Below, piece after piece: positions 175 through 14,069 of a DNA stretch of 64,000 nt; positions within the stretch are counted from its first letter, which is position 1; each line of letters opens with the position of its first letter. The position numbers and the translations under genes were made by a program. The DNA lies in NCBI RefSeq assembly GCF_056746865.1, contig NZ_CM163382.1; one strand, given 5' to 3'. Under the pieces are notes generated by a model. The model ran no database searches. It was not told where the DNA came from and worked only from the letters and a program-made list of their open reading frames with translations.

Positions 175-459
175 ATGCCTTTAGCAGCCAAACTCACCGA
201 CAAAGGCACCCAGCACGACGGTTATTACGAGACCGTCATCACCGCCGGGTCATCCACCGTCTTTATCGATGGTCTTCCCGCAGCCCGTCAGGGAGATCCG
301 CTGACGCCGCATGCTAAACCGAAGCATCCCCCTCATCCCCGTAAAATCGCCAGAGGTTCTTCAACCGTCTTTATTGACGGCCTGCCCGCCGCCAGAAGCG
401 GTGATGCTGTTGACTGCGGCGGCGTGGTTATTGGTGGCGGTACGGTAAATATAGGCTGA
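175..459 (+). CDS. PAAR-domain protein (T6SS spike-sharpening protein), 94 aa
   Basis: Translation contains two GLPAAR(Q/S)GD motifs and a glycine-rich tail; GGAGG RBS 8 nt upstream of ATG; lies 18 nt upstream of vgrG. Confidence 0.75.
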   Translation: MPLAAKLTDKGTQHDGYYETVITAGSSTVFIDGLPAARQGDPLTPHAKPKHPPHPRKIARGSSTVFIDGLPAARSGDAVDCGGVVIGGGTVNIG

Positions 460-477
460 TATGTCTGAGAGGTATTT

Positions 478-2883
478 ATGTCCTTAAAAGGTCTTCGCTT
501 TACGCTGGAGGTTGACGGCCAGGAGCCGGACACCTTTGCAGTGGTGAATTTCAGGTTAATCCAGAACCAGTCATATCCGTTTGTGATGAGTGTGGATGTT
601 GCCAGCGACTCTTTTATGCAGACGGCGGAGATGCTGCTGGAGAAGAAGGCGACACTGACCATCTGGCAGGGCGCAGTGGCGCAGCGTTATGTCACCGGCG
701 TGGTGGCGGGTTTTGGCATGCAGGAGAATAACGGCTGGCAGATGCGTTATCACCTGCGTATTGAGCCGCCGTTATGGCGGTGCGGGCTGCGGCAGAACTT
801 TCGTATCTTCCAGCAGCAGGATATCCGGACGATATCGGCCACGTTACTGAACGAGAACGGCGTCACGGAGTGGACGCCGCTGTTTTATGAGGACCATCCG
901 GCGCGGGAGTTCTGTGTCCAGTACGGGGAGTCGGACCTGGCGTTTCTGTCCCGGCTATGGGCGGAGGAGGGTCTTTTCTTCTTTGAGCGGTTTGCGGCGG
1001 ACAGTCCGGAGCAGAAGCTGACGCTGTGCGACGATGTGGCGGGGCTGTCACAGGCGGGGGAGTTTCCGTTTAACCCGGACACATCGGCAGGAGCGGAGAC
1101 GGAGTGTGTCAGTATGTTCCGTTATGAGGCGCATGTCCGCCCGTCATCGGTGCAGAGCCAGGATTACACCTTTAAGGTGCCGGACTGGCCGGGGATGTAT
1201 GAGCAGCAGGGTGAGAACCTGAACGGACAGCTGGAGCAGTATGAGATATTTGATTATCCGGGAAGGTACAAGGATGAACAGCACGGCAAGGATTTCACGC
1301 TGTACCAGATGGAGAGCCTGCGCAGTGATGCGGAAAAGGCCACAGGGCAGAGTAATTCGCCGAAGCTGTGGCCGGGAACGCGGTTTATGCTGACGGGGCA
1401 TCCGCAGAAGATGCTGAACCGTGAATGGCAGGTGGTACAGAGCATACTGTCAGGAAACCAGCCGCAGGCGCTGCACGGCAGCCAGGGAAAGGGAACCACG
1501 CTGGGCAATCAGTTAGAGGTGATACCGGCGGACCGGACGTGGCGTCCACGGCTGCAAAACAAACCGAAGGTGGACGGGCCACAGAGCGCCATTGTCACCG
1601 GTCCTGCGGGAGAGGAAATCTTCTGCGACGAACACGGACGTGTGCGAGTGCAGTTTCACTGGGACAGGTATAACCCGGCAACGGAGGCGAGTTCATGCTG
1701 GGTGAGGGTGTCGCAGGCGTGGGCGGGGCCGGGGTTCGGTAACCTGGCGATACCACGGGTGGGTCAGGAGGTGATAGTGGACTTCCTGAACGGCGACCCG
1801 GACCAGCCGATAATCATGGGGCGGACGTACCATGAGGACAACCGTTCGCCGGGCGACCTGCCGGGAACGAAGACGCAGATGACCATCCGGTCAAAAACCT
1901 ATAAAGGAAGCGGATTTAACGAGCTGCGGTTTGAAGACGCCACCAGTAATGAGCAGGTGTATATCCATGCCCAGAAGAACATGGATACGGAGGTGCTCAA
2001 CGACCGGACAACGGATGTGAAACATGACCATACGGAAACCATCGGGAACGACCAGAAGATAACGGTGGTGAAGGGGCAGACGGTTCAGGTCGGGACCAGA
2101 AAAGAAGGGGGCCACGACCAGAGTATCACGGTGGCGAACGACCGGTGCATCACGGTACGTAATGACCAGACGCTGCAGGTGACGAATGACCGGACGGTGA
2201 GCGTGAGTAATGATGACGGCCTGTACGTCAGAAATGACCGTAAAGTGACGGTGGAAGGGAAGCAGGAGCATAAGACGACGGGGAACCATATCAGTCTGGT
2301 GGAGGGAAAGCACAGCCTGGTGGTGAAGGGGGACCTGGCGAGGAAGGTGAGTGGCGCGCTGGGGATAAAGGTGGACGGGGATATCGTGCTGGAGAGCAGC
2401 AGCCGGATAAGCCTGAAGGTGAGTGGCTCGTTTGTGGTCATCCATTCAGGGGGCGTGGACATCGTCGGGCCGAAAATCAATCTCAATAGCGGCGGTAGTC
2501 CGGGGACGCCGGTGCCGGCGCTGCAACCGGCGGTGCTGAAGACACTGGGGGATGAGAAGAGTGGTGATGGCAGTGATTCCGGAGAAGAAAATGAAGACTC
2601 TGGAGGGAACTGCGTGACCGGAAGTGGTGGTGATGATCGAGGTGACGATGAGGATGAACCTGAAAAATATACTCTCCAGTTCCATTTTACAGACGATGAC
2701 GGGATACCGTATTCAGAAACCCGCTACATTGCCTTCTTTGAGGATGGCACGCAGACCCGCGGAGAAACGGATGAAGAGGGGTATACAGAGCGTTTTTTTG
2801 TATCTAGCAAACATGAAATTAAAGTGAAGTTGTTATTTGCGAATGATGATTTTCTCTCAATGGAAGGACACTATGGACGATAA
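478..2883 (+). CDS. vgrG: Type VI secretion spike protein VgrG (gp27/gp5-like) with C-terminal acidic linker and extension domain, 801 aa
   Basis: N-terminus MSLKGLRFTLEVDG, conserved core GPAGEEIFCDEHGRVRV...QAWAGPGFGNLAIPRVGQEVIVDFLNGDPDQPIIMGRTYH, followed by gp5-like beta-helix octapeptide repeats (VxNDRTxxV...), then a D/E/G/S-rich linker and about 100 aa C-terminal domain. Confidence 0.9.
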   Translation: MSLKGLRFTLEVDGQEPDTFAVVNFRLIQNQSYPFVMSVDVASDSFMQTAEMLLEKKATLTIWQGAVAQRYVTGVVAGFGMQENNGWQMRYHLRIEPPLWRCGLRQNFRIFQQQDIRTISATLLNENGVTEWTPLFYEDHPAREFCVQYGESDLAFLSRLWAEEGLFFFERFAADSPEQKLTLCDDVAGLSQAGEFPFNPDTSAGAETECVSMFRYEAHVRPSSVQSQDYTFKVPDWPGMYEQQGENLNGQLEQYEIFDYPGRYKDEQHGKDFTLYQMESLRSDAEKATGQSNSPKLWPGTRFMLTGHPQKMLNREWQVVQSILSGNQPQALHGSQGKGTTLGNQLEVIPADRTWRPRLQNKPKVDGPQSAIVTGPAGEEIFCDEHGRVRVQFHWDRYNPATEASSCWVRVSQAWAGPGFGNLAIPRVGQEVIVDFLNGDPDQPIIMGRTYHEDNRSPGDLPGTKTQMTIRSKTYKGSGFNELRFEDATSNEQVYIHAQKNMDTEVLNDRTTDVKHDHTETIGNDQKITVVKGQTVQVGTRKEGGHDQSITVANDRCITVRNDQTLQVTNDRTVSVSNDDGLYVRNDRKVTVEGKQEHKTTGNHISLVEGKHSLVVKGDLARKVSGALGIKVDGDIVLESSSRISLKVSGSFVVIHSGGVDIVGPKINLNSGGSPGTPVPALQPAVLKTLGDEKSGDGSDSGEENEDSGGNCVTGSGGDDRGDDEDEPEKYTLQFHFTDDDGIPYSETRYIAFFEDGTQTRGETDEEGYTERFFVSSKHEIKVKLLFANDDFLSMEGHYGR

Positions 2884-3664
2884 TAATCAAACTTCTGGAC
2901 AACCAAAGCCAGAGCCAGAAGAATGTGTGAAAGAGCAAAAAATAACTGATCATTTTAAAATAATGATTGATAAGGCTCGTAAGGCACAAAAGTTGGTTTT
3001 GATAAAAAGAGCAGATGATCTTTTGAGATGGGGAGCACAGGAGGAATATGATTTCAGTAAGATCTTTGGTGTTAAAGGAAATAAGGAGGTTAATATAAGA
3101 AAATATGGACATAATACAGGTAGGCGCATGAATGCTAGATTTCTTATGATGGATGGTGTGAGAAGATTAATGATTATAGCTAATGATTTAACAATGAGCA
3201 GTTTTATAAATTATACAGGTTGTAATGAATTTGCAGCATTCGTCAGCCCAAGTAAGGATATGCCCTATATAATTAACATAGGCGCAAAATTTGAGTATAG
3301 AGATGGCAAAAAAAATCCAGTAACGGGAAAGGATTCTCATGTTGCTACTTTATGTCATGAAATGTCTCATATTCAGTGGTATTATGGGGATAATAAAAAA
3401 GGTGGTATGTGGTCACAGGATTATACAACTACTGATAAATATTCAACGTGCAAAGAGGATGAAGTTTCATATGACGAACATATCCGTATTGCAACTAAAC
3501 TGATCTCTAAACAAAAAGATCAAATATTCGAGAATGCATATAACATAGAAAGATATTTTGAAATAAGATTAATTGAAAGTGAGATAGACTCGATTAATGA
3601 TGAAATATTAAGCAATTCAGTTAAGAAAAAAATAGCGGAATTAGAAAAAGCACTTCTCCATTAA
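2873..3664 (+). CDS. Putative HExxH zinc-metallopeptidase-like protein; candidate VgrG-associated cargo effector
   Basis: ORF overlapping the vgrG stop (ATG at 2873, alternative ATG at 2837); motif ATLCHEMSHIQW (HExxH); abrupt drop to AT-rich composition; no confident family assignment. Confidence 0.5.
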   Translation: MDDNNQTSGQPKPEPEECVKEQKITDHFKIMIDKARKAQKLVLIKRADDLLRWGAQEEYDFSKIFGVKGNKEVNIRKYGHNTGRRMNARFLMMDGVRRLMIIANDLTMSSFINYTGCNEFAAFVSPSKDMPYIINIGAKFEYRDGKKNPVTGKDSHVATLCHEMSHIQWYYGDNKKGGMWSQDYTTTDKYSTCKEDEVSYDEHIRIATKLISKQKDQIFENAYNIERYFEIRLIESEIDSINDEILSNSVKKKIAELEKALLH

Positions 3665-3716
3665 CTAATAAGTCGAGAAATATATTAATGCTGCAAGCTA
3701 TAAAAAAATCATAATA

Positions 3717-4346
3717 ATGACAATCGTAAATATTATATTTTTCTATTCCTTTCAATCGACTGCGGATGAAATGGTTTTAATAAAAAAATACGGGTTTGGG
3801 CTTGAGAGAGATATCAAAGGAAGGCCATTAATTTATCCTATCGAAAATTATGATGAGTGTAAGAAAAAATGCAATCATATGAATTATATAGCGGATGTCA
3901 ATGCTCAATTAGCTATGAGTAAAAAAAACAACAGGATTTTTGCTAACATAACCTTTACTAACAATAGCTCTACCACGTATTTTTTTTCTAAATATTACCT
4001 ACCTATGAAAGTAAAAGATGGAAAAGGAGATGAATATGATGCGATATGCAAAAAACCATTCAGAATCAACTCTGGGAATATCACGTTGGACTACTTAGGT
4101 GGTTCATGTCCTTTTGAAATTAATACGAATCCTGAACGGTGGAATACTATTAAACCAGGTCGTAGTTTTTTGTTGAGTATAACCTTAAATGATATGTATG
4201 CCTTTATACCAGGAGATAATTATTATTTTATAAAATCATCTGGCTATAAATTTGTTAATGACAAGTGGTTTACACTCAAATCAATCAATAATATTTTTCT
4301 TTATTTTTTAAATTTAAAAATTAATTGTGCTGATGATTTTTTTTGA
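3717..4346 (+). CDS. Hypothetical protein, AT-rich; candidate immunity/accessory protein of the vgrG cargo
   Basis: 209-aa ORF immediately downstream of the HExxH gene, same strand; no recognisable motif; start codon uncertain. Confidence 0.35.
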   Translation: MTIVNIIFFYSFQSTADEMVLIKKYGFGLERDIKGRPLIYPIENYDECKKKCNHMNYIADVNAQLAMSKKNNRIFANITFTNNSSTTYFFSKYYLPMKVKDGKGDEYDAICKKPFRINSGNITLDYLGGSCPFEINTNPERWNTIKPGRSFLLSITLNDMYAFIPGDNYYFIKSSGYKFVNDKWFTLKSINNIFLYFLNLKINCADDFF

Positions 4347-4528
4347 TATTAATAATTTTACTACATGTGATAATTTGTTATTAGATGAAAAAAAATACTT
4401 TTTTATTAATCAGTTATGGGCAATTGAGGATGAAAAAAATTCTATTTACGTCACCCCTGATGAAATTTCTATAAGTATAGACGGCGATAACTTAAAGTTG
4501 CCATATTAGGAATCTGTGAAAGAACAAG

Positions 4529-5017
4529 GTGCGCCGCTTTTTTGTACTAAATAATTCGCATTTTAGTCACGGCAGAGAAGAAATCCATCTTCATATTGTT
4601 TGCGATGTCCCTGATGAACTTATTGATTTCACGTTTGAATGGAAAGGTCAGAAGAAATTATGCGTGGCAGTCTCCTTTTGGTCAATAATAGCAGAACAAA
4701 AGAAAGAGCCAGAAATGACGGTCAGATATTATATCAGTTCTGCTGATTTAACCGCAAAAAAGTTCGCCACAGCGATACGAAATCACTGGCACGTGGAGAA
4801 TAAGCTGCACTGGCGTCTGGACGTGGTAATGAACGAAGACGACTGCAAAATAAGAAGAGGAAACGCCGCAGAATTATTTTCAGGGATACGGCACATCGCT
4901 ATTAATATTTTAACGAATGATAAGGTATTCAAGGCAGGGTTAAGACGCAAGATGCGAAAAGCAGCTATGGACAGAGACTACCTCGCGTCAGTCCTTGCGG
5001 GGAGCGGGCTTTCGTAA
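4529..5017 (+). pseudogene. H-repeat (ISAs1-family) transposase, C-terminal fragment
   Basis: Translation ...[63 protein letters not shown]...[20 protein letters not shown] matches the C-terminal half of Rhs-associated H-rpt proteins (YhhI/YdcC-like); N-terminal half is absent. Confidence 0.75.
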
Positions 5018-5125
5018 TCTTGCCCTGGCGATCGAATAGCGCAGATGACGGTGCTCTAAATTTGAATCTAATAAGCCGGTGTTATTTTTCATCCACTATT
5101 AAAATCTTGACACAACGAGGCAACA

Positions 5126-5686
5126 ATGAAAAAAAGCAAAAAAATTAAAACAATGAACCATCAAAATAATAGCGGGATACAAAATCAACCAGACTATCAC
5201 ATCGAAATAGAAAGAAAAAATATGGTAAGATTGCTTGATGAACGTATTGATAAAGTTTACGGTTCATTGCTAGGACCAATGAAAAAGAAAAATATAGATA
5301 AAATACGTCATTTTACACTTGATGTAATGGTGTTTATTCTTGACACGAACCCTCGTGTTTGTAATAAATTATCCAGGGAAATAATATCTTTAGCGCAAAA
5401 TACCTTCATTGAAAAAAACGTTAATTTTTCAACTTTTAATAATGAACAGCATAGAATAAGGGAGTATATGAATGAAGGTGGTGGAATACGATGGTTTACA
5501 TGGGATAACCCCGAGATATCTTTTGTTCGTGCATCTTTTGGCCTTTTTGTCAAAATGGAAACAAAAGGTGATCATGAACATACACTAAGTGACACATTTC
5601 TTCAGATTGTTGAGTGTGTTAATTTAAATATAGGACTTATTGCAAAAGATGAACTGGTAAAAATCATCAATAAACACTTTATGTAA
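5126..5686 (+). CDS. Hypothetical protein (186 aa), AT-rich island ORF
   Basis: Clean ORF with A-rich upstream region; no recognisable domain; located in the low-GC region downstream of vgrG. Confidence 0.35.
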   Translation: MKKSKKIKTMNHQNNSGIQNQPDYHIEIERKNMVRLLDERIDKVYGSLLGPMKKKNIDKIRHFTLDVMVFILDTNPRVCNKLSREIISLAQNTFIEKNVNFSTFNNEQHRIREYMNEGGGIRWFTWDNPEISFVRASFGLFVKMETKGDHEHTLSDTFLQIVECVNLNIGLIAKDELVKIINKHFM

Positions 5687-6045
5687 AAATATACTTCTGT
5701 ATGAAGTTATAATAATACAGTGAAAATCATCAAATTATTAATTAATGATGCTCTTTGTTATTATTTACTTTTTACAATTGAATCAGGGGTTTTATTTTCT
5801 GTAGTAAAGTTGTATTTTTGCTAAAGGTGATAAAGTACAGGTGTTTATATTAAATTAGAACTCCCCTTAATTATCATAAATACAAAGAGGTGAAAACATG
5901 CGGGGGTGTTTTCGTTAAATAATACCATGGTGAATTAATAACATGCTATCAGTGATATACATATTTTCTCTAACAAAGTTTTAGTAAAATTACGCGTAGT
6001 AAGAAGATTCCGCCAAAGATTCCATATAATAATATTAAGGTTGTT

Positions 6046-6681
6046 ATGAATAAAGGTAATAGATTACAACAGTTAGAAGATGCGTGTCGTGATATTATTA
6101 AAATTAACATGTGGTATGAACTCCCCGATTATGTATTTTTTTCAATATCTGACACCATCGATGGGACGAGTGATGAATTCGCAATAAATGTGTATAAAAA
6201 TATCGATAAAAGTCTTCTTGAAATATTATTGCATCCATCTGTTTTACTGTCAGTTGTTGAGTCCTTACAAAGTAATACTATAGCTGAGTATATCGTGAAA
6301 TTGTCTGAAATAGAGATGAATTATGACGACTTGCTAATATCGGATGTTAAATCATGTCTTTTTATCAACTATGGATTCAATAACAGTGAATCGGTTGCGC
6401 TATTTAATAAGATTTACCGCGAATTAAAAGATATTGTAAAATCATCAAGAGTACATATAGATCATGAGAAAGATATTTTTGATGGCCTTAATCAAATCTT
6501 GGCTTTTTCCGATAATAATAAACATGAGTATTTTTTATATATAAAGGCATATTGGCTCAGTTTATACTTTTGTGAAATTTCACAGAACGTGAGAGAAAGA
6601 GATAAGTTGTCATTTTATTATAATGAATTTTCTGTCCGATTTCCTAATGTTGTCCTATATCCGTCATGCTACAAATTGTAA
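6046..6681 (+). CDS. Hypothetical protein (211 aa), AT-rich island ORF
   Basis: Clean ORF in the low-GC region; no recognisable domain. Confidence 0.35.
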   Translation: MNKGNRLQQLEDACRDIIKINMWYELPDYVFFSISDTIDGTSDEFAINVYKNIDKSLLEILLHPSVLLSVVESLQSNTIAEYIVKLSEIEMNYDDLLISDVKSCLFINYGFNNSESVALFNKIYRELKDIVKSSRVHIDHEKDIFDGLNQILAFSDNNKHEYFLYIKAYWLSLYFCEISQNVRERDKLSFYYNEFSVRFPNVVLYPSCYKL

Positions 6682-7073
6682 GGCTTGGCACCTGAAATTC
6701 ATTGTTAATTCGAGACGCTTGATTGTCCACTATATCAAAACAGTCATACCTCGGAATTTTCTCGCATTAGTCCATACGGTATTCAATATTCGCAACTGTG
6801 CCCTGAAATAAAAAACTGCAAAACTGCTTTTTCTTGACCTGTCCCAATCACGCAAGACTACTTTTAGTAGAGACCTCCAGCTATGTCGATTTTAGTGCCG
6901 CCCGCGCATTTTATACAAAACAGGGCTTTATTAATGAAGCTATAATACGCAATTACTATGATGTTGGTGAGGATAAATTAATCTTCACTAAAAATATGCA
7001 ATCGTGAGATAAAATATGCTTTTAACTCATATTGAAACATTGCTTAAGCAACTTGGTTGCTGCATATGATTCT

Positions 7074-8734: not shown

Positions 8735-9265
8735 GTGCAGTTTATGAAACATTCATTTGAAGTAAAACTTGCCGCTGTAAATCATTACCTGGCTGGTCAT
8801 GCAGGCATCATTTCTACGGTAAAACTCTTTCAACTTTCTCACACCAGCCTCTCACACTGGATTAATCTTTTTCTTCTTCACGGTCCTCGGGCACTGGATT
8901 GCAGACACAAGCGTAGCTATTCTCCTGAAGATAAACTTTGCGTGGTTCTTTATGCTCTCGGGCATTCTGAGTCTCTACCCCGGGTAGCTGCCCGGTTTAA
9001 CATTCCCAGCCACAACACGGTTAAAAACTGGATAAAAGGCTACCGCAAATCTGGTAATGAGGCCTTTATCAGGCGCAGGAAGGAGAAAAGCATGACCCGT
9101 TCTGATGATACCCATGAAAACGAGGCAAACATGACGCCGGAAGAGATGAAGAATGAGCTGCGTTATCTTCGCGCAGAAAATGCATATCTGAAAGCCATGC
9201 AGGAGCATCTCCTGGAAAAAAAGCGCCAGGAGCTGGAGAAAAAACGAAAGTCATCCGGAGCCTGA
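8735..9265 (+). CDS. IS3-family transposase OrfA (HTH DNA-binding and leucine-zipper part)
   Basis: 176 aa; HTH region followed by heptad leucine repeat (NELRYLRAENAYLKAMQEHLLEKKRQELEKKRK); ends just after an A6 run. Confidence 0.8.
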   Translation: MQFMKHSFEVKLAAVNHYLAGHAGIISTVKLFQLSHTSLSHWINLFLLHGPRALDCRHKRSYSPEDKLCVVLYALGHSESLPRVAARFNIPSHNTVKNWIKGYRKSGNEAFIRRRKEKSMTRSDDTHENEANMTPEEMKNELRYLRAENAYLKAMQEHLLEKKRQELEKKRKSSGA

Positions 9266-9369
9266 GGTGCGGACACTGCCAGTCTGACCTGTTAAAGGCT
9301 GCAGGGCTGGCCAGAAGCACGCTGTACTACCAGCTGTCACTGCAGAAGGCTAAGGACAAGTATGCTGAT

Positions 9370-10124
<755 letters not shown>

Positions 10125-12525: not shown

Positions 12526-14069
12526 TATTCGCCCTCCGCTTTGTCGCGTACTTCGGTGATGTTGATGGCATCGATACGGCTACTGTTGAACAGGTTGAAT
12601 TTGCTGTCCGAGCCGTGGCAACCGTCGCCAAAGGTAAAACCGCAGCCATTGCGTTCTGCGAAGGCATCGCCCGCCATTTCCCGATGACTGGTTGGAATGA
12701 CAAAACGGTCTTCATAGTTGGCAATGGCGAGGTAGCGATACATCTCTTCGACCTGGGCGACGCTCAGGCCTACTTCGTCAATGGCGCGGGTATCGGTAAC
12801 GCCTTCCACGGTTTGTGAACGCATATAGTGGCGCATCGCCATCATCCGTTTTAGCGCCCGCAGTACCGGACCGGTATCGCCGGCACTTAACATATTGGCG
12901 AGATATTGCACAGGAATACGCAGGCTCTCGATGGCTGGCAGCACGCCTTCGCTTTTCGGCAAACCGCCCGCATCTGCGTAGGACTGAATCGGTGACAGCG
13001 GAGGAACGTACCAGACCATCGGCAGGGTGCGGTATTCAGGGTGCAGCGGTAGCGCCAGTTTCCAGTCCATCGCCATTTTGTAGACTGGCGAACGCTGGGC
13101 AGCTTCAATCACGTTTTGTGGAATACCTTGTTTCAGGGCTTCCTCGATCACTGAGGGATCGTGTGGATCGAGGAATACTTCGCACTGGCGTTCATAGAGG
13201 TCAACTTCACGCTCGGTGCTCGCCGCTTCCTCGATGCGGTCAGCGTCGTAAAGCAGCACGCCCAGATACCGGATGCGACCCACGCAGGTTTCTGAGCACA
13301 CGGTGGGTTGGCCTGACTCAATTCGTGGGTAACAGAAGATACATTTTTCTGACTTGCCGCTTTTCCAGTTGAAGTAGATTTTTTTGTACGGACAACCGCT
13401 AATGCACAAACGCCAGCCACGGCATTTATCCTGATCGATCAGCACAATGCCGTCTTCTTCGCGTTTGTAGATAGCGCCGCTTGGGCAGGTCGCCACGCAA
13501 CTGGGATTGAGGCAGTGTTCGCACAAGCGCGGCAGGTACATCATGAAGGTGTTTTCAAACTGCCCGTACATCTCCTTTTGCATGGCCTCGAAGTTGCGGT
13601 CACGGGCGCGTTTTTCGAATTCGCCGCCCAACAATTCTTCCCAGTTTGGCCCCCAGATCACTTTGTCCATCCGTTTGCCGTCAATCAGTGAACGCGGACG
13701 AGCAGTAGGGATATGTTTGCCTTCCGGTGCGCTATGCAAATGTTCGTAGTCGAAAGTGAAAGGTTCGTAGTAATCATCAATCTGCGGCACCACCGGGTTA
13801 GCGAAGATTTTGGTTATTACGCCCATCTTGCTGCCCAGACGCGGGCGGATCTTGCCATTCACATCACGCACCCAGCCGCCTTGCCACTCTTCCTGATCTT
13901 CCCAGTTTTTCGGATAACCAATGCCCGGTTTGGTTTCGACGTTGTTAAACCATGCGTACTCCATGCCTTCGCGTCCGGTCCAGACGTTTTTACAGGTCAC
14001 CGAACAGGTATGGCAGCCGATACATTTATCGAGGTTAAGCACCATGCCGACTTGCGAACGTATTTTCAT
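12525..14069 (-). CDS. narY: Respiratory nitrate reductase 2 beta subunit (Fe-S)
   Basis: 514 aa with multiple CxxCxxCxxxCP ferredoxin-type cysteine clusters. Confidence 0.9.
   Translation of the reverse strand: MKIRSQVGMVLNLDKCIGCHTCSVTCKNVWTGREGMEYAWFNNVETKPGIGYPKNWEDQEEWQGGWVRDVNGKIRPRLGSKMGVITKIFANPVVPQIDDYYEPFTFDYEHLHSAPEGKHIPTARPRSLIDGKRMDKVIWGPNWEELLGGEFEKRARDRNFEAMQKEMYGQFENTFMMYLPRLCEHCLNPSCVATCPSGAIYKREEDGIVLIDQDKCRGWRLCISGCPYKKIYFNWKSGKSEKCIFCYPRIESGQPTVCSETCVGRIRYLGVLLYDADRIEEAASTEREVDLYERQCEVFLDPHDPSVIEEALKQGIPQNVIEAAQRSPVYKMAMDWKLALPLHPEYRTLPMVWYVPPLSPIQSYADAGGLPKSEGVLPAIESLRIPVQYLANMLSAGDTGPVLRALKRMMAMRHYMRSQTVEGVTDTRAIDEVGLSVAQVEEMYRYLAIANYEDRFVIPTSHREMAGDAFAERNGCGFTFGDGCHGSDSKFNLFNSSRIDAINITEVRDKAEGE

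Follow-up and report, generated by a model that had tools for sequence, protein, structure and literature searches.

M35 peptidases have been described as toxins in type VI secretion system (T6SS) loci of Escherichia coli. In strain BCE049 (E. coli O2:K1), an 'M35-peptidase from module 5' of 'T6SS effector locus1' (FQU84_13600-13645) was tested; it inhibits the growth of E. coli when it carries a PelB leader and not in the cytoplasm, and deletion of the whole locus left the survival of mice unchanged (PMC7904677). In E. coli PAR, the peptidase M35-PAR (AKO63_2955) is toxic when exported, is neutralised by AKO63_2956, and binds VgrG only via a C-terminal VgrG fragment that is encoded as a separate open reading frame (ORF) (PMC10673891). 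We report here on a related pair of genes in a stretch of E. coli chromosome of 64,000 nucleotides (the window; RefSeq assembly GCF_056746865.1, contig NZ_CM163382.1). We propose that the ORF at 2873-3664 very probably encodes an antibacterial T6SS cargo effector, a zinc endopeptidase of the aspzincin (M35-like) type, and that the gene following it encodes a periplasmic immunity protein. The features on which this proposal turns are as follows.

2873-3664, plus strand: effector gene, M35-like (aspzincin) zinc metallopeptidase, 263 residues (WP_000342577.1, 'peptidase M35')
3717-4346, plus strand: putative immunity gene as read in the window, 209 residues (WP_021544301.1), with a residual signal peptide MTIVNIIFFYSFQSTA and then a conserved core, recognised by homology to the PAR downstream proteins
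478-2883, plus strand: vgrG/tssI spike gene, 801 residues (TIGR03361, E 6.5e-181)
2665-2856, plus strand: C-terminal domain of VgrG, residues ~730-793, EKYTLQFHFTDDDGIPY..., a proposed TTR-like effector-docking domain recognised by its conservation across loci

The BCE049 locus1 is the same yncG-yddH island as that of the window, and its sole M35 peptidase matches the window effector in 262 of 263 residues. PAR has, within its metV T6SS cluster, a frameshifted vgrG followed by genes for proteins of 262 and 308 residues and an intact vgrG followed by genes for proteins of 246 and 203 residues; the two PAR effectors are 30% and 34% identical to the window effector. The initial annotation, made from the sequence by itself, could place neither gene in a named family and supposed that the pair might be poorly characterised. 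For the effector, neither part of this holds, and the finding is already known in its essentials: the effector is named in RefSeq, periplasmic toxicity has been reported for a near-identical copy, and for a paralogous pair the roles of effector and immunity protein have been validated. What the present analysis adds is a firm, model-based placement of the effector among the aspzincins and apart from VgrG2b, and, by sequence comparison, the likely identification of the downstream gene as an immunity gene, the finding of its shortening at both ends in the window, and a C-terminal VgrG domain that appears to be specific to this effector. A literature search combining aspzincin with type VI secretion found no match.

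The placement of the effector begins with its predicted structure. A model obtained with AlphaFold2 (AF2) from an alignment of 71 sequences (predicted local distance difference test, pLDDT, 92.1; predicted template modelling score, pTM, 0.87) has the three-dimensional fold of an aspzincin, in keeping with the zincin that the initial annotation had suspected, and a Foldseek search with this model returned four structures and nothing else significant. Three short segments make up the putative active site.

3356-3370, plus strand: HEMSH, with the inferred zinc ligands His162 and His166 and catalytic Glu163, aligning to the HExxH of AsaP1 and GfMEP
3419-3421, plus strand: codon of Asp183, the inferred third zinc ligand (the Asp of the aspzincin GTxD), Asp in 68 of 71 relatives
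3533-3559, plus strand: NAYNIERYF, residues 221-229, counterpart of the M35 NADNxEYF motif, invariant in 19 close relatives

As first noted, HEMSH at residues 162-166 is the only HExxH in this protein from a low-GC region, and its conservation across the 71 relatives (His162 in 70, Glu163 and His166 in all) shows that it is not a chance match. A Thr or Ser stands at position 181, two residues before Asp183, in every one of the 71; in the third motif, position 223 is D or Y, E226 is kept in 65 and Y228 in 60. Among the 19 close relatives, H162, E163, H166, D183 and the block N221-A-Y-N-x-E-R-Y-F229 all belong to the invariant residues. In 43 relatives the Asp follows the second His by 9 residues, a distance shared with GfMEP (His121-Asp130); in the subfamily of the window effector it follows by 17. 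On its modelled fold and active-site pattern, the effector is best classed as an aspzincin with a derived motif.

Sequence searches lead to the same class through the family. A word-indexed search found 29 relatives of the effector in Escherichia, Salmonella, Buttiauxella, Franconibacter and Rahnella, and a 19-sequence family profile run against the sequences of the PDB matched AsaP1 (2X3A, E 1.8e-6) and the peptidyl-Lys metalloendopeptidase GfMEP (1G12, E 1.3e-3). An exhaustive profile search of 1.84 billion representatives returned 257 proteins at E of 1e-3 or below. The distant relatives include a VgrG fusion of 909 residues (P0113) and a PAAR fusion of 372 residues (P0080), the C-terminal domains of which carry the canonical aspzincin motifs HEMSH...GT(R/K)D...YG...(N/H)AD(N/S)F(E/Q)(M/Y)(F/Y), and two distant relatives have a precomputed match to PF14521. 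Neither the profile search against the PDB nor the fold search found any similarity to VgrG2b (6H56). Membership in the VgrG2b/Tpe (DUF4157 gluzincin) family was accordingly considered and rejected, and the model supports a true aspzincin (M35-like), separate from the VgrG2b/DUF4157 family with which it has been equated.

The effector gene is closely tied to the spike gene before it. As the initial annotation had observed, the two overlap by 11 nucleotides: vgrG ends in GGA CGA TAA at 2883, the ATG of the effector lies at 2873 within CAC TAT GGA, and a Shine-Dalgarno-like GGAAGGA stands 4-5 nucleotides upstream of this ATG. The order vgrG, effector, and a gene for 228-276 residues recurs in Salmonella, in a main E. 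coli T6SS cluster and in Buttiauxella, with overlaps of 11 or 14 nucleotides between vgrG and effector in these three loci, so that the placement of the effector gene directly downstream of PAAR/vgrG is conserved across taxa.

The window VgrG itself comprises Phage_GPD, Phage_base_V and two Gp5_trimer_C domains (Pfam) as far as residue 621, followed by an acidic Gly/Asp-rich linker and then the ~64-residue C-terminal domain. Its core (residues 1-620) shares 95% identity with the VgrG of a complete main T6SS cluster adjoining hcp/tssBC (locus L013, 2615-5014) and only 27.5% with the intact metV-cluster VgrG of PAR (locus L006, 5771-8281). The C-terminal domain is 52-55% identical in both PAR VgrGs and is found upstream of every M35-family effector in the loci examined; it thus appears to follow the effector family and not the type of spike. 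It also aligns with residues 781-829 of the 841 in VgrG1 (6SJL) of enteroaggregative E. coli (EAEC), a weak match that is congruent in position and not significant (E 1.7). That segment of VgrG1 we take to be the TTR domain carrying the cargo Tle1. The paper on the structure of VgrG2b names the TTR fold of EAEC VgrG1 as important for the delivery of that protein's cargo effector. Taken together, the conserved domain, the weak match to VgrG1 and the PAR pull-downs make the C-terminal domain the likely docking site for the effector, in a role that would be TTR-like. On the side of the effector, the first ~26 residues are predicted to be disordered in the AF2 model, and the VgrG- and PAAR-fused relatives align with it from about residue 25 onward only; this N-terminal segment may be a docking peptide. 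The BCE049 study groups its VgrG, which is 96% identical to that of the window, with 'T6SS2' (PMC7904677).

The second gene of the pair, the ORF of 209 residues at 3717-4346, lies on the same strand directly after the effector, as was first described. Its product shares 31% and 28% identity with the pair of PAR proteins encoded downstream of effectors, the validated immunity protein being one of this pair, and it aligns with the proteins encoded directly after the effector homologues in Salmonella, a main E. coli T6SS cluster, Buttiauxella and PAR. Most members of this family have an N-terminal hydrophobic leader ending in small-x-Ala before Asp-Glu, and all share two invariant cysteines; leader and cysteine pair would fit an exported, disulfide-bonded protein, in agreement with a toxin that acts in the periplasm. 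The immunity half is found alone in ~130 complete genomes, including CFT073, Nissle 1917 and ATCC 25922, as is classically seen with orphan immunity genes. In CFT073, the only one of these immunity-alone loci that was read, the copy is frameshifted and lies at the same locus (L008, 2522-7797) behind a different 'peptidase M35' of 200 residues and that effector's own small downstream ORFs. Sequence comparison indicates that the 'hypothetical protein' downstream of the effector is an immunity gene; indels in its homopolymers shorten it or break it up, and for this reason it is often wrongly called. An ENA metagenome contig (P0042) encodes 116 residues in which the HEMSH region of the effector (...CHEMSHIQWYYGDNNKGGMWTQDY...) runs straight into the immunity core's C-terminal half; the chimera suggests a deletion that fused the two genes in some population. 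A 276-residue immunity protein in a 2026 paper on SPI-20/21 of Salmonella arizonae was considered as a further relative and set aside: it belongs to an unrelated lysozyme-like effector, and the metallopeptidase of that paper is VgrG2b-like.

It could be argued that the downstream ORF encodes an accessory protein or an adaptor that helps to load the effector, and indeed it has no recognised domain, with a best Pfam match at E 0.012 and no NCBIfam or PADLOC family; a profile search for further homologues returned E. coli-type sequences only, without Pfam domains or names. We consider this highly improbable. The homologue of the ORF neutralises the toxicity of M35-PAR, the members of its family carry export signals whereas T6SS adaptors are cytoplasmic, the gene persists alone in genomes without the effector, and in PAR the binding role has been assigned to the C-terminal VgrG fragment. 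The reading of the two genes as effector and immunity gene, which the initial annotation had put forward, is upheld by the fold and active site, the gene order, the published toxicity, the homology to M35-PAR/AKO63_2956 and the orphan immunity copies.

The same observations bear on whether the protease might instead be aimed at eukaryotic host cells, in the manner of the type III effector NleD (peptidase M91) or of the fish-pathogen toxin AsaP1. The effector does have a weak Pfam match to Peptidase_M91, 'Effector protein'; AsaP1, an extracellular toxin, is its closest solved bacterial relative; and the island is present in pathogenic E. coli lineages. Yet immunity is needed only against toxins that act on bacteria. 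The gene next to the effector is of a family whose members carry signal peptides and include a validated immunity protein, and orphan copies of that gene exist. The toxicity of the BCE049 copy to E. coli is specific to the periplasm, and the loss of the whole BCE049 locus was without effect on mouse survival. A host target in place of a bacterial one is very unlikely in our judgement; a dual role, with bacterial and host targets, is possible.

We favour the antibacterial reading, and the pathway that we envisage under it would run as follows. The effector would be translated together with the upstream VgrG and would dock non-covalently on the small TTR-like C-terminal domain of that protein. 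Carried on the PAAR-VgrG spike of a T6SS, it would then be driven into the periplasm of nearby Gram-negative cells and would there hydrolyse a substrate in the envelope, perhaps a peptide of the cell wall or a protein of the envelope. Catalysis would depend on Zn2+ bound by His162, His166 and Asp183, and Glu163 would act as the general base. M35 type enzymes are zinc-dependent endopeptidases cleaving before Lys, and by likeness to these Lys-N enzymes the aspzincin toxin clade might attack an envelope linkage that involves lysine or diaminopimelate. The producing cell would be protected by the product of the downstream gene, a cognate periplasmic immunity protein with a Sec signal peptide and a conserved cysteine pair, presumably by direct inhibition of the protease. 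The allele found in the window is a shortened one, without the charged start of the signal peptide and without a C-terminal segment of 54 residues.

Several observations weigh against this reading. As a single sequence, the effector reaches Aspzincin_M35 (PF14521) only at E 0.005 and Peptidase_M91 at E 0.027 in Pfam, both below significance; NCBIfam and PADLOC scans of the effector gave no match, and a search of the single sequence against the PDB returned nothing significant. Its GGMWSQDYT is a degenerate form of GTxDxxYG, lacking YG and carrying an 8-residue insertion, and its subfamily has Tyr223 where GfMEP has Asp154, which hydrogen-bonds His117. The links to the published experiments were drawn through gene order: 'module 5' was equated with FQU84_RS13640 (FQU84_13640) from gene order and annotation, and M35-PAR with the gene at 12631-13419 of locus L006 from gene order, annotation and the split vgrG, in neither case from printed sequences. 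The model of the immunity protein is unreliable (pLDDT 46, from a 7-sequence alignment), and neither a fold nor any interface can be read from it. The 64-kb window contains no T6SS core genes, the remainder of it being core genome, and the immunity allele is cut short at either end, having lost the charged signal-peptide start and 54 C-terminal residues. From these last two points, the module may be inactive or self-harmful in the window strain.

The nature of the truncation emerges from comparison with intact alleles. In these, for example in strain CUVET21-H2, the gene runs from an ATG at 3688 to 4509, encodes 273 residues and begins MLQAIKKIIIMTIVN...; the ORF at 3717-4346 exists as the initial annotation described it, but it is not the whole gene: the full protein is longer and secreted, and the window allele is truncated twice. 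Two single-base changes separate the window allele from the intact one, A8 to A7 at ~3702-3708 and T7 to T8 at 4337-4344, and they leave the following traces.

3688-3714, plus strand: remnant of the true immunity start, MLQAIKKS and a stop (intact: MLQAIKKIII, the charged signal-peptide start; compared with the intact allele L009:4816-5637)
3702-3708, plus strand: A7 tract (A8 in intact alleles)
4337-4344, plus strand: T8 tract (T7 in intact alleles), creating a premature TGA at 4344-4346
4345-4509, plus strand: out-of-frame remainder of the immunity gene, ...DINNFTTC...IDGDNLKLPY, listed as ORF 4327-4509, a segment conserved in homologues

With A7, the frame opened by the ATG at 3688 closes after 8 codons, at 3714. 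The main ORF begins anew at 3717, lacking the Lys-Lys with which the signal peptide starts. With T8, the last 54 residues are shifted out of frame; the segment thus lost shows conservation among homologues from Salmonella, Buttiauxella and PAR. Exact-sequence look-ups of contigs gave the following counts for the four alleles.

273 residues (A8, T7): at least 1000 contigs
219 residues (A8, T8): at least 1000 contigs
209 residues (A7, T8; the window allele): 478 contigs
263 residues (A7, T7, on a different single-nucleotide polymorphism background): 294 contigs

Each of the four tract combinations is therefore common, and A7 is seen on two polymorphism backgrounds. The immunity region (3688-4509, 822 bp) holds 7 homopolymer runs of at least 7 nucleotides, against ~0.8 expected, a number reached in none of 500 shuffles; the effector gene, of similar composition, holds 2 such runs. 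Every indel that separates the five compared genomes falls in a homopolymer run of the immunity gene. One may ask whether the immunity gene behaves as a contingency locus, slippage-prone and phase-variable. If the tracts did switch how long the immunity protein is or whether it is exported, with the toxin left intact, immunity would vary among the cells of a population, and this variation could drive kin discrimination or self-intoxication. The Salmonella orthologue has no homopolymer runs of at least 7 nucleotides, which weakens the idea of a selected contingency locus; we regard that idea as improbable, and read the pattern as mainly slippage-driven decay or variation in an AT-rich gene.

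The setting of the pair is that of a mobile cassette site. Of 5426 complete E. coli genomes, 666 match positions 2400-4600 by megablast, and three among these show full identity to the window across the 2201 bases. In the identical genomes, the annotated order is yncG, PAAR protein, TssI/VgrG, 'peptidase M35', hypothetical protein, ISAs1 transposase fragment and two hypothetical proteins, followed on the far side of the island by yddH, nhoA, an IS3-family element, yddE and the narZ operon. The yncG-yddH segment is an orphan vgrG island, and GC content falls from 0.55-0.60 in vgrG to 0.28-0.35 across 2750-6750, with the low-GC island reaching ~6750. The remaining named features of the island are these.

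175-459, plus strand: gene for the PAAR spike-tip protein, 94 residues, first gene of the island (NCBIfam NF033420 T6SS_PAAR_dom, E 1.4e-46; 'PAAR protein' in identical genomes)
4529-5017, plus strand: ISAs1-family (H-repeat) transposase fragment (NF033564, E 7.5e-34; annotated as an incomplete pseudogene)

The ISAs1 fragment directly follows the effector-immunity module and matches profile positions 201-314 only, the C-terminal third; other strains carry shorter ISAs1 fragments at the same site. Between this fragment and yddH lie two more AT-rich ORFs, 5126-5686 and 6046-6681 (186 and 211 residues; WP_000748591.1 and WP_001032567.1 in the identical genomes), which have no match in Pfam, NCBIfam or PADLOC and may be orphan immunity genes or leftovers of earlier cassettes. 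Beyond the island, between nhoA and yddE, the ORFs 8735-9265 and 9370-10092 correspond to an IS3-like IS1397-family transposase element in an identical genome, and this insertion (8735-10092) is not present at that site in strains 118UI, CFT073 and BCE049. In BCE049 (locus L019, 17159-26834), an additional PAAR-VgrG-DUF2169-PAAR-like module lies upstream.

This setting, together with the immunity alleles, might be taken to mean that in the window strain the pair is a decaying relic and no longer a weapon, its effector undelivered or its immunity gene non-functional. An ISAs1 fragment flanks the module, the immunity ORF lacks its charged start and 54 conserved C-terminal residues, other strains show more frameshifts, split immunity genes and a shortened effector of 253 residues, and T6SS core genes do not occur within 64 kb. 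Against this, the effector is intact, as are PAAR and VgrG, at least 1000 contigs carry the exact effector sequence, the immunity ORF retains its conserved core and a stretch of hydrophobic residues that closes with a cleavage-type site, S-T-A, two paralogous immunity proteins of 203 and 228 residues in the loci read also do without the C-terminal segment, and the 209-residue allele is itself common. A T6SS encoded elsewhere in the genome normally serves orphan vgrG islands. We think it unlikely that the pair is a relic, while granting this explanation a better chance than any other alternative considered here. The yncG-yddH site is a swap point for cassettes, and under the antibacterial reading the window pair would be one of the interchangeable toxin cassettes that E. 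coli keeps on orphan vgrG islands for contact-dependent competition, carried by ~9% of complete E. coli genomes, with the immunity gene alone in another ~2%.

Among the systems already described, the BCE049 island is the nearest, agreeing with the window in chromosomal site, in the order of yncG, PAAR, VgrG, effector and yddH and, almost residue for residue, in the effector, with a VgrG that is 96% identical; it differs in a second PAAR-VgrG-DUF2169 module upstream and in an immunity gene split into two ORFs. M35-PAR and AKO63_2956 belong to the same two protein families (30% identity for the effector, 31% for the immunity core) and likewise follow a vgrG with the same C-terminal domain, but they are paralogues in the metV T6SS cluster, with a VgrG of another core type, a PAR vgrG frameshifted into two ORFs and an immunity protein of 308 residues. 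The M35 aspzincins of MEROPS, GfMEP (1G12/1GE6), AsaP1 (2X3A) and deuterolysin (1EB6), share the HExxH, the Asp after Thr/Ser-x and a C-terminal NA(D/Y)NxExY, and bind zinc through His, His and Asp, the set that the sequence suggests for the window effector. Unlike these enzymes, with which it shares 17-22% identity, the effector has no signal peptide or propeptide and would rely on T6SS delivery instead; it has ~26 extra disordered N-terminal residues and an extra C-terminal helix (235-262) in the model, an insertion of 8 residues between HExxH and the Asp, and Tyr223 in place of Asp.

The C-terminal domain of VgrG2b and Tpe1 (DUF4157) of Pseudomonas aeruginosa offer a functional parallel from another class of zincins. 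They too are T6SS-delivered HExxH metallopeptidases whose toxicity is confined to the periplasm; an immunity protein exposed to the periplasm (PA0261/Tpi) neutralises them, and they are known in cargo, VgrG-fused and PAAR-fused forms (PMC6899460). VgrG2b is, however, a thermolysin-like gluzincin with Glu983 as its third ligand, and since this is a different class, the label 'M35 domain of VgrG2b' used in a 2023 paper is a loose one. The enterobacterial immunity proteins of the VgrG2b type are described as lipoproteins, with DUF7480 in S. arizonae. EAEC VgrG1/Tle1 (6SJL), finally, resembles the window module in its small C-terminal β-rich VgrG domain after a gp5-like spike and in the proposed docking of the cargo effector encoded directly downstream; its cargo is a phospholipase and not a protease, and the two VgrG domains are joined by the non-significant sequence match given above.

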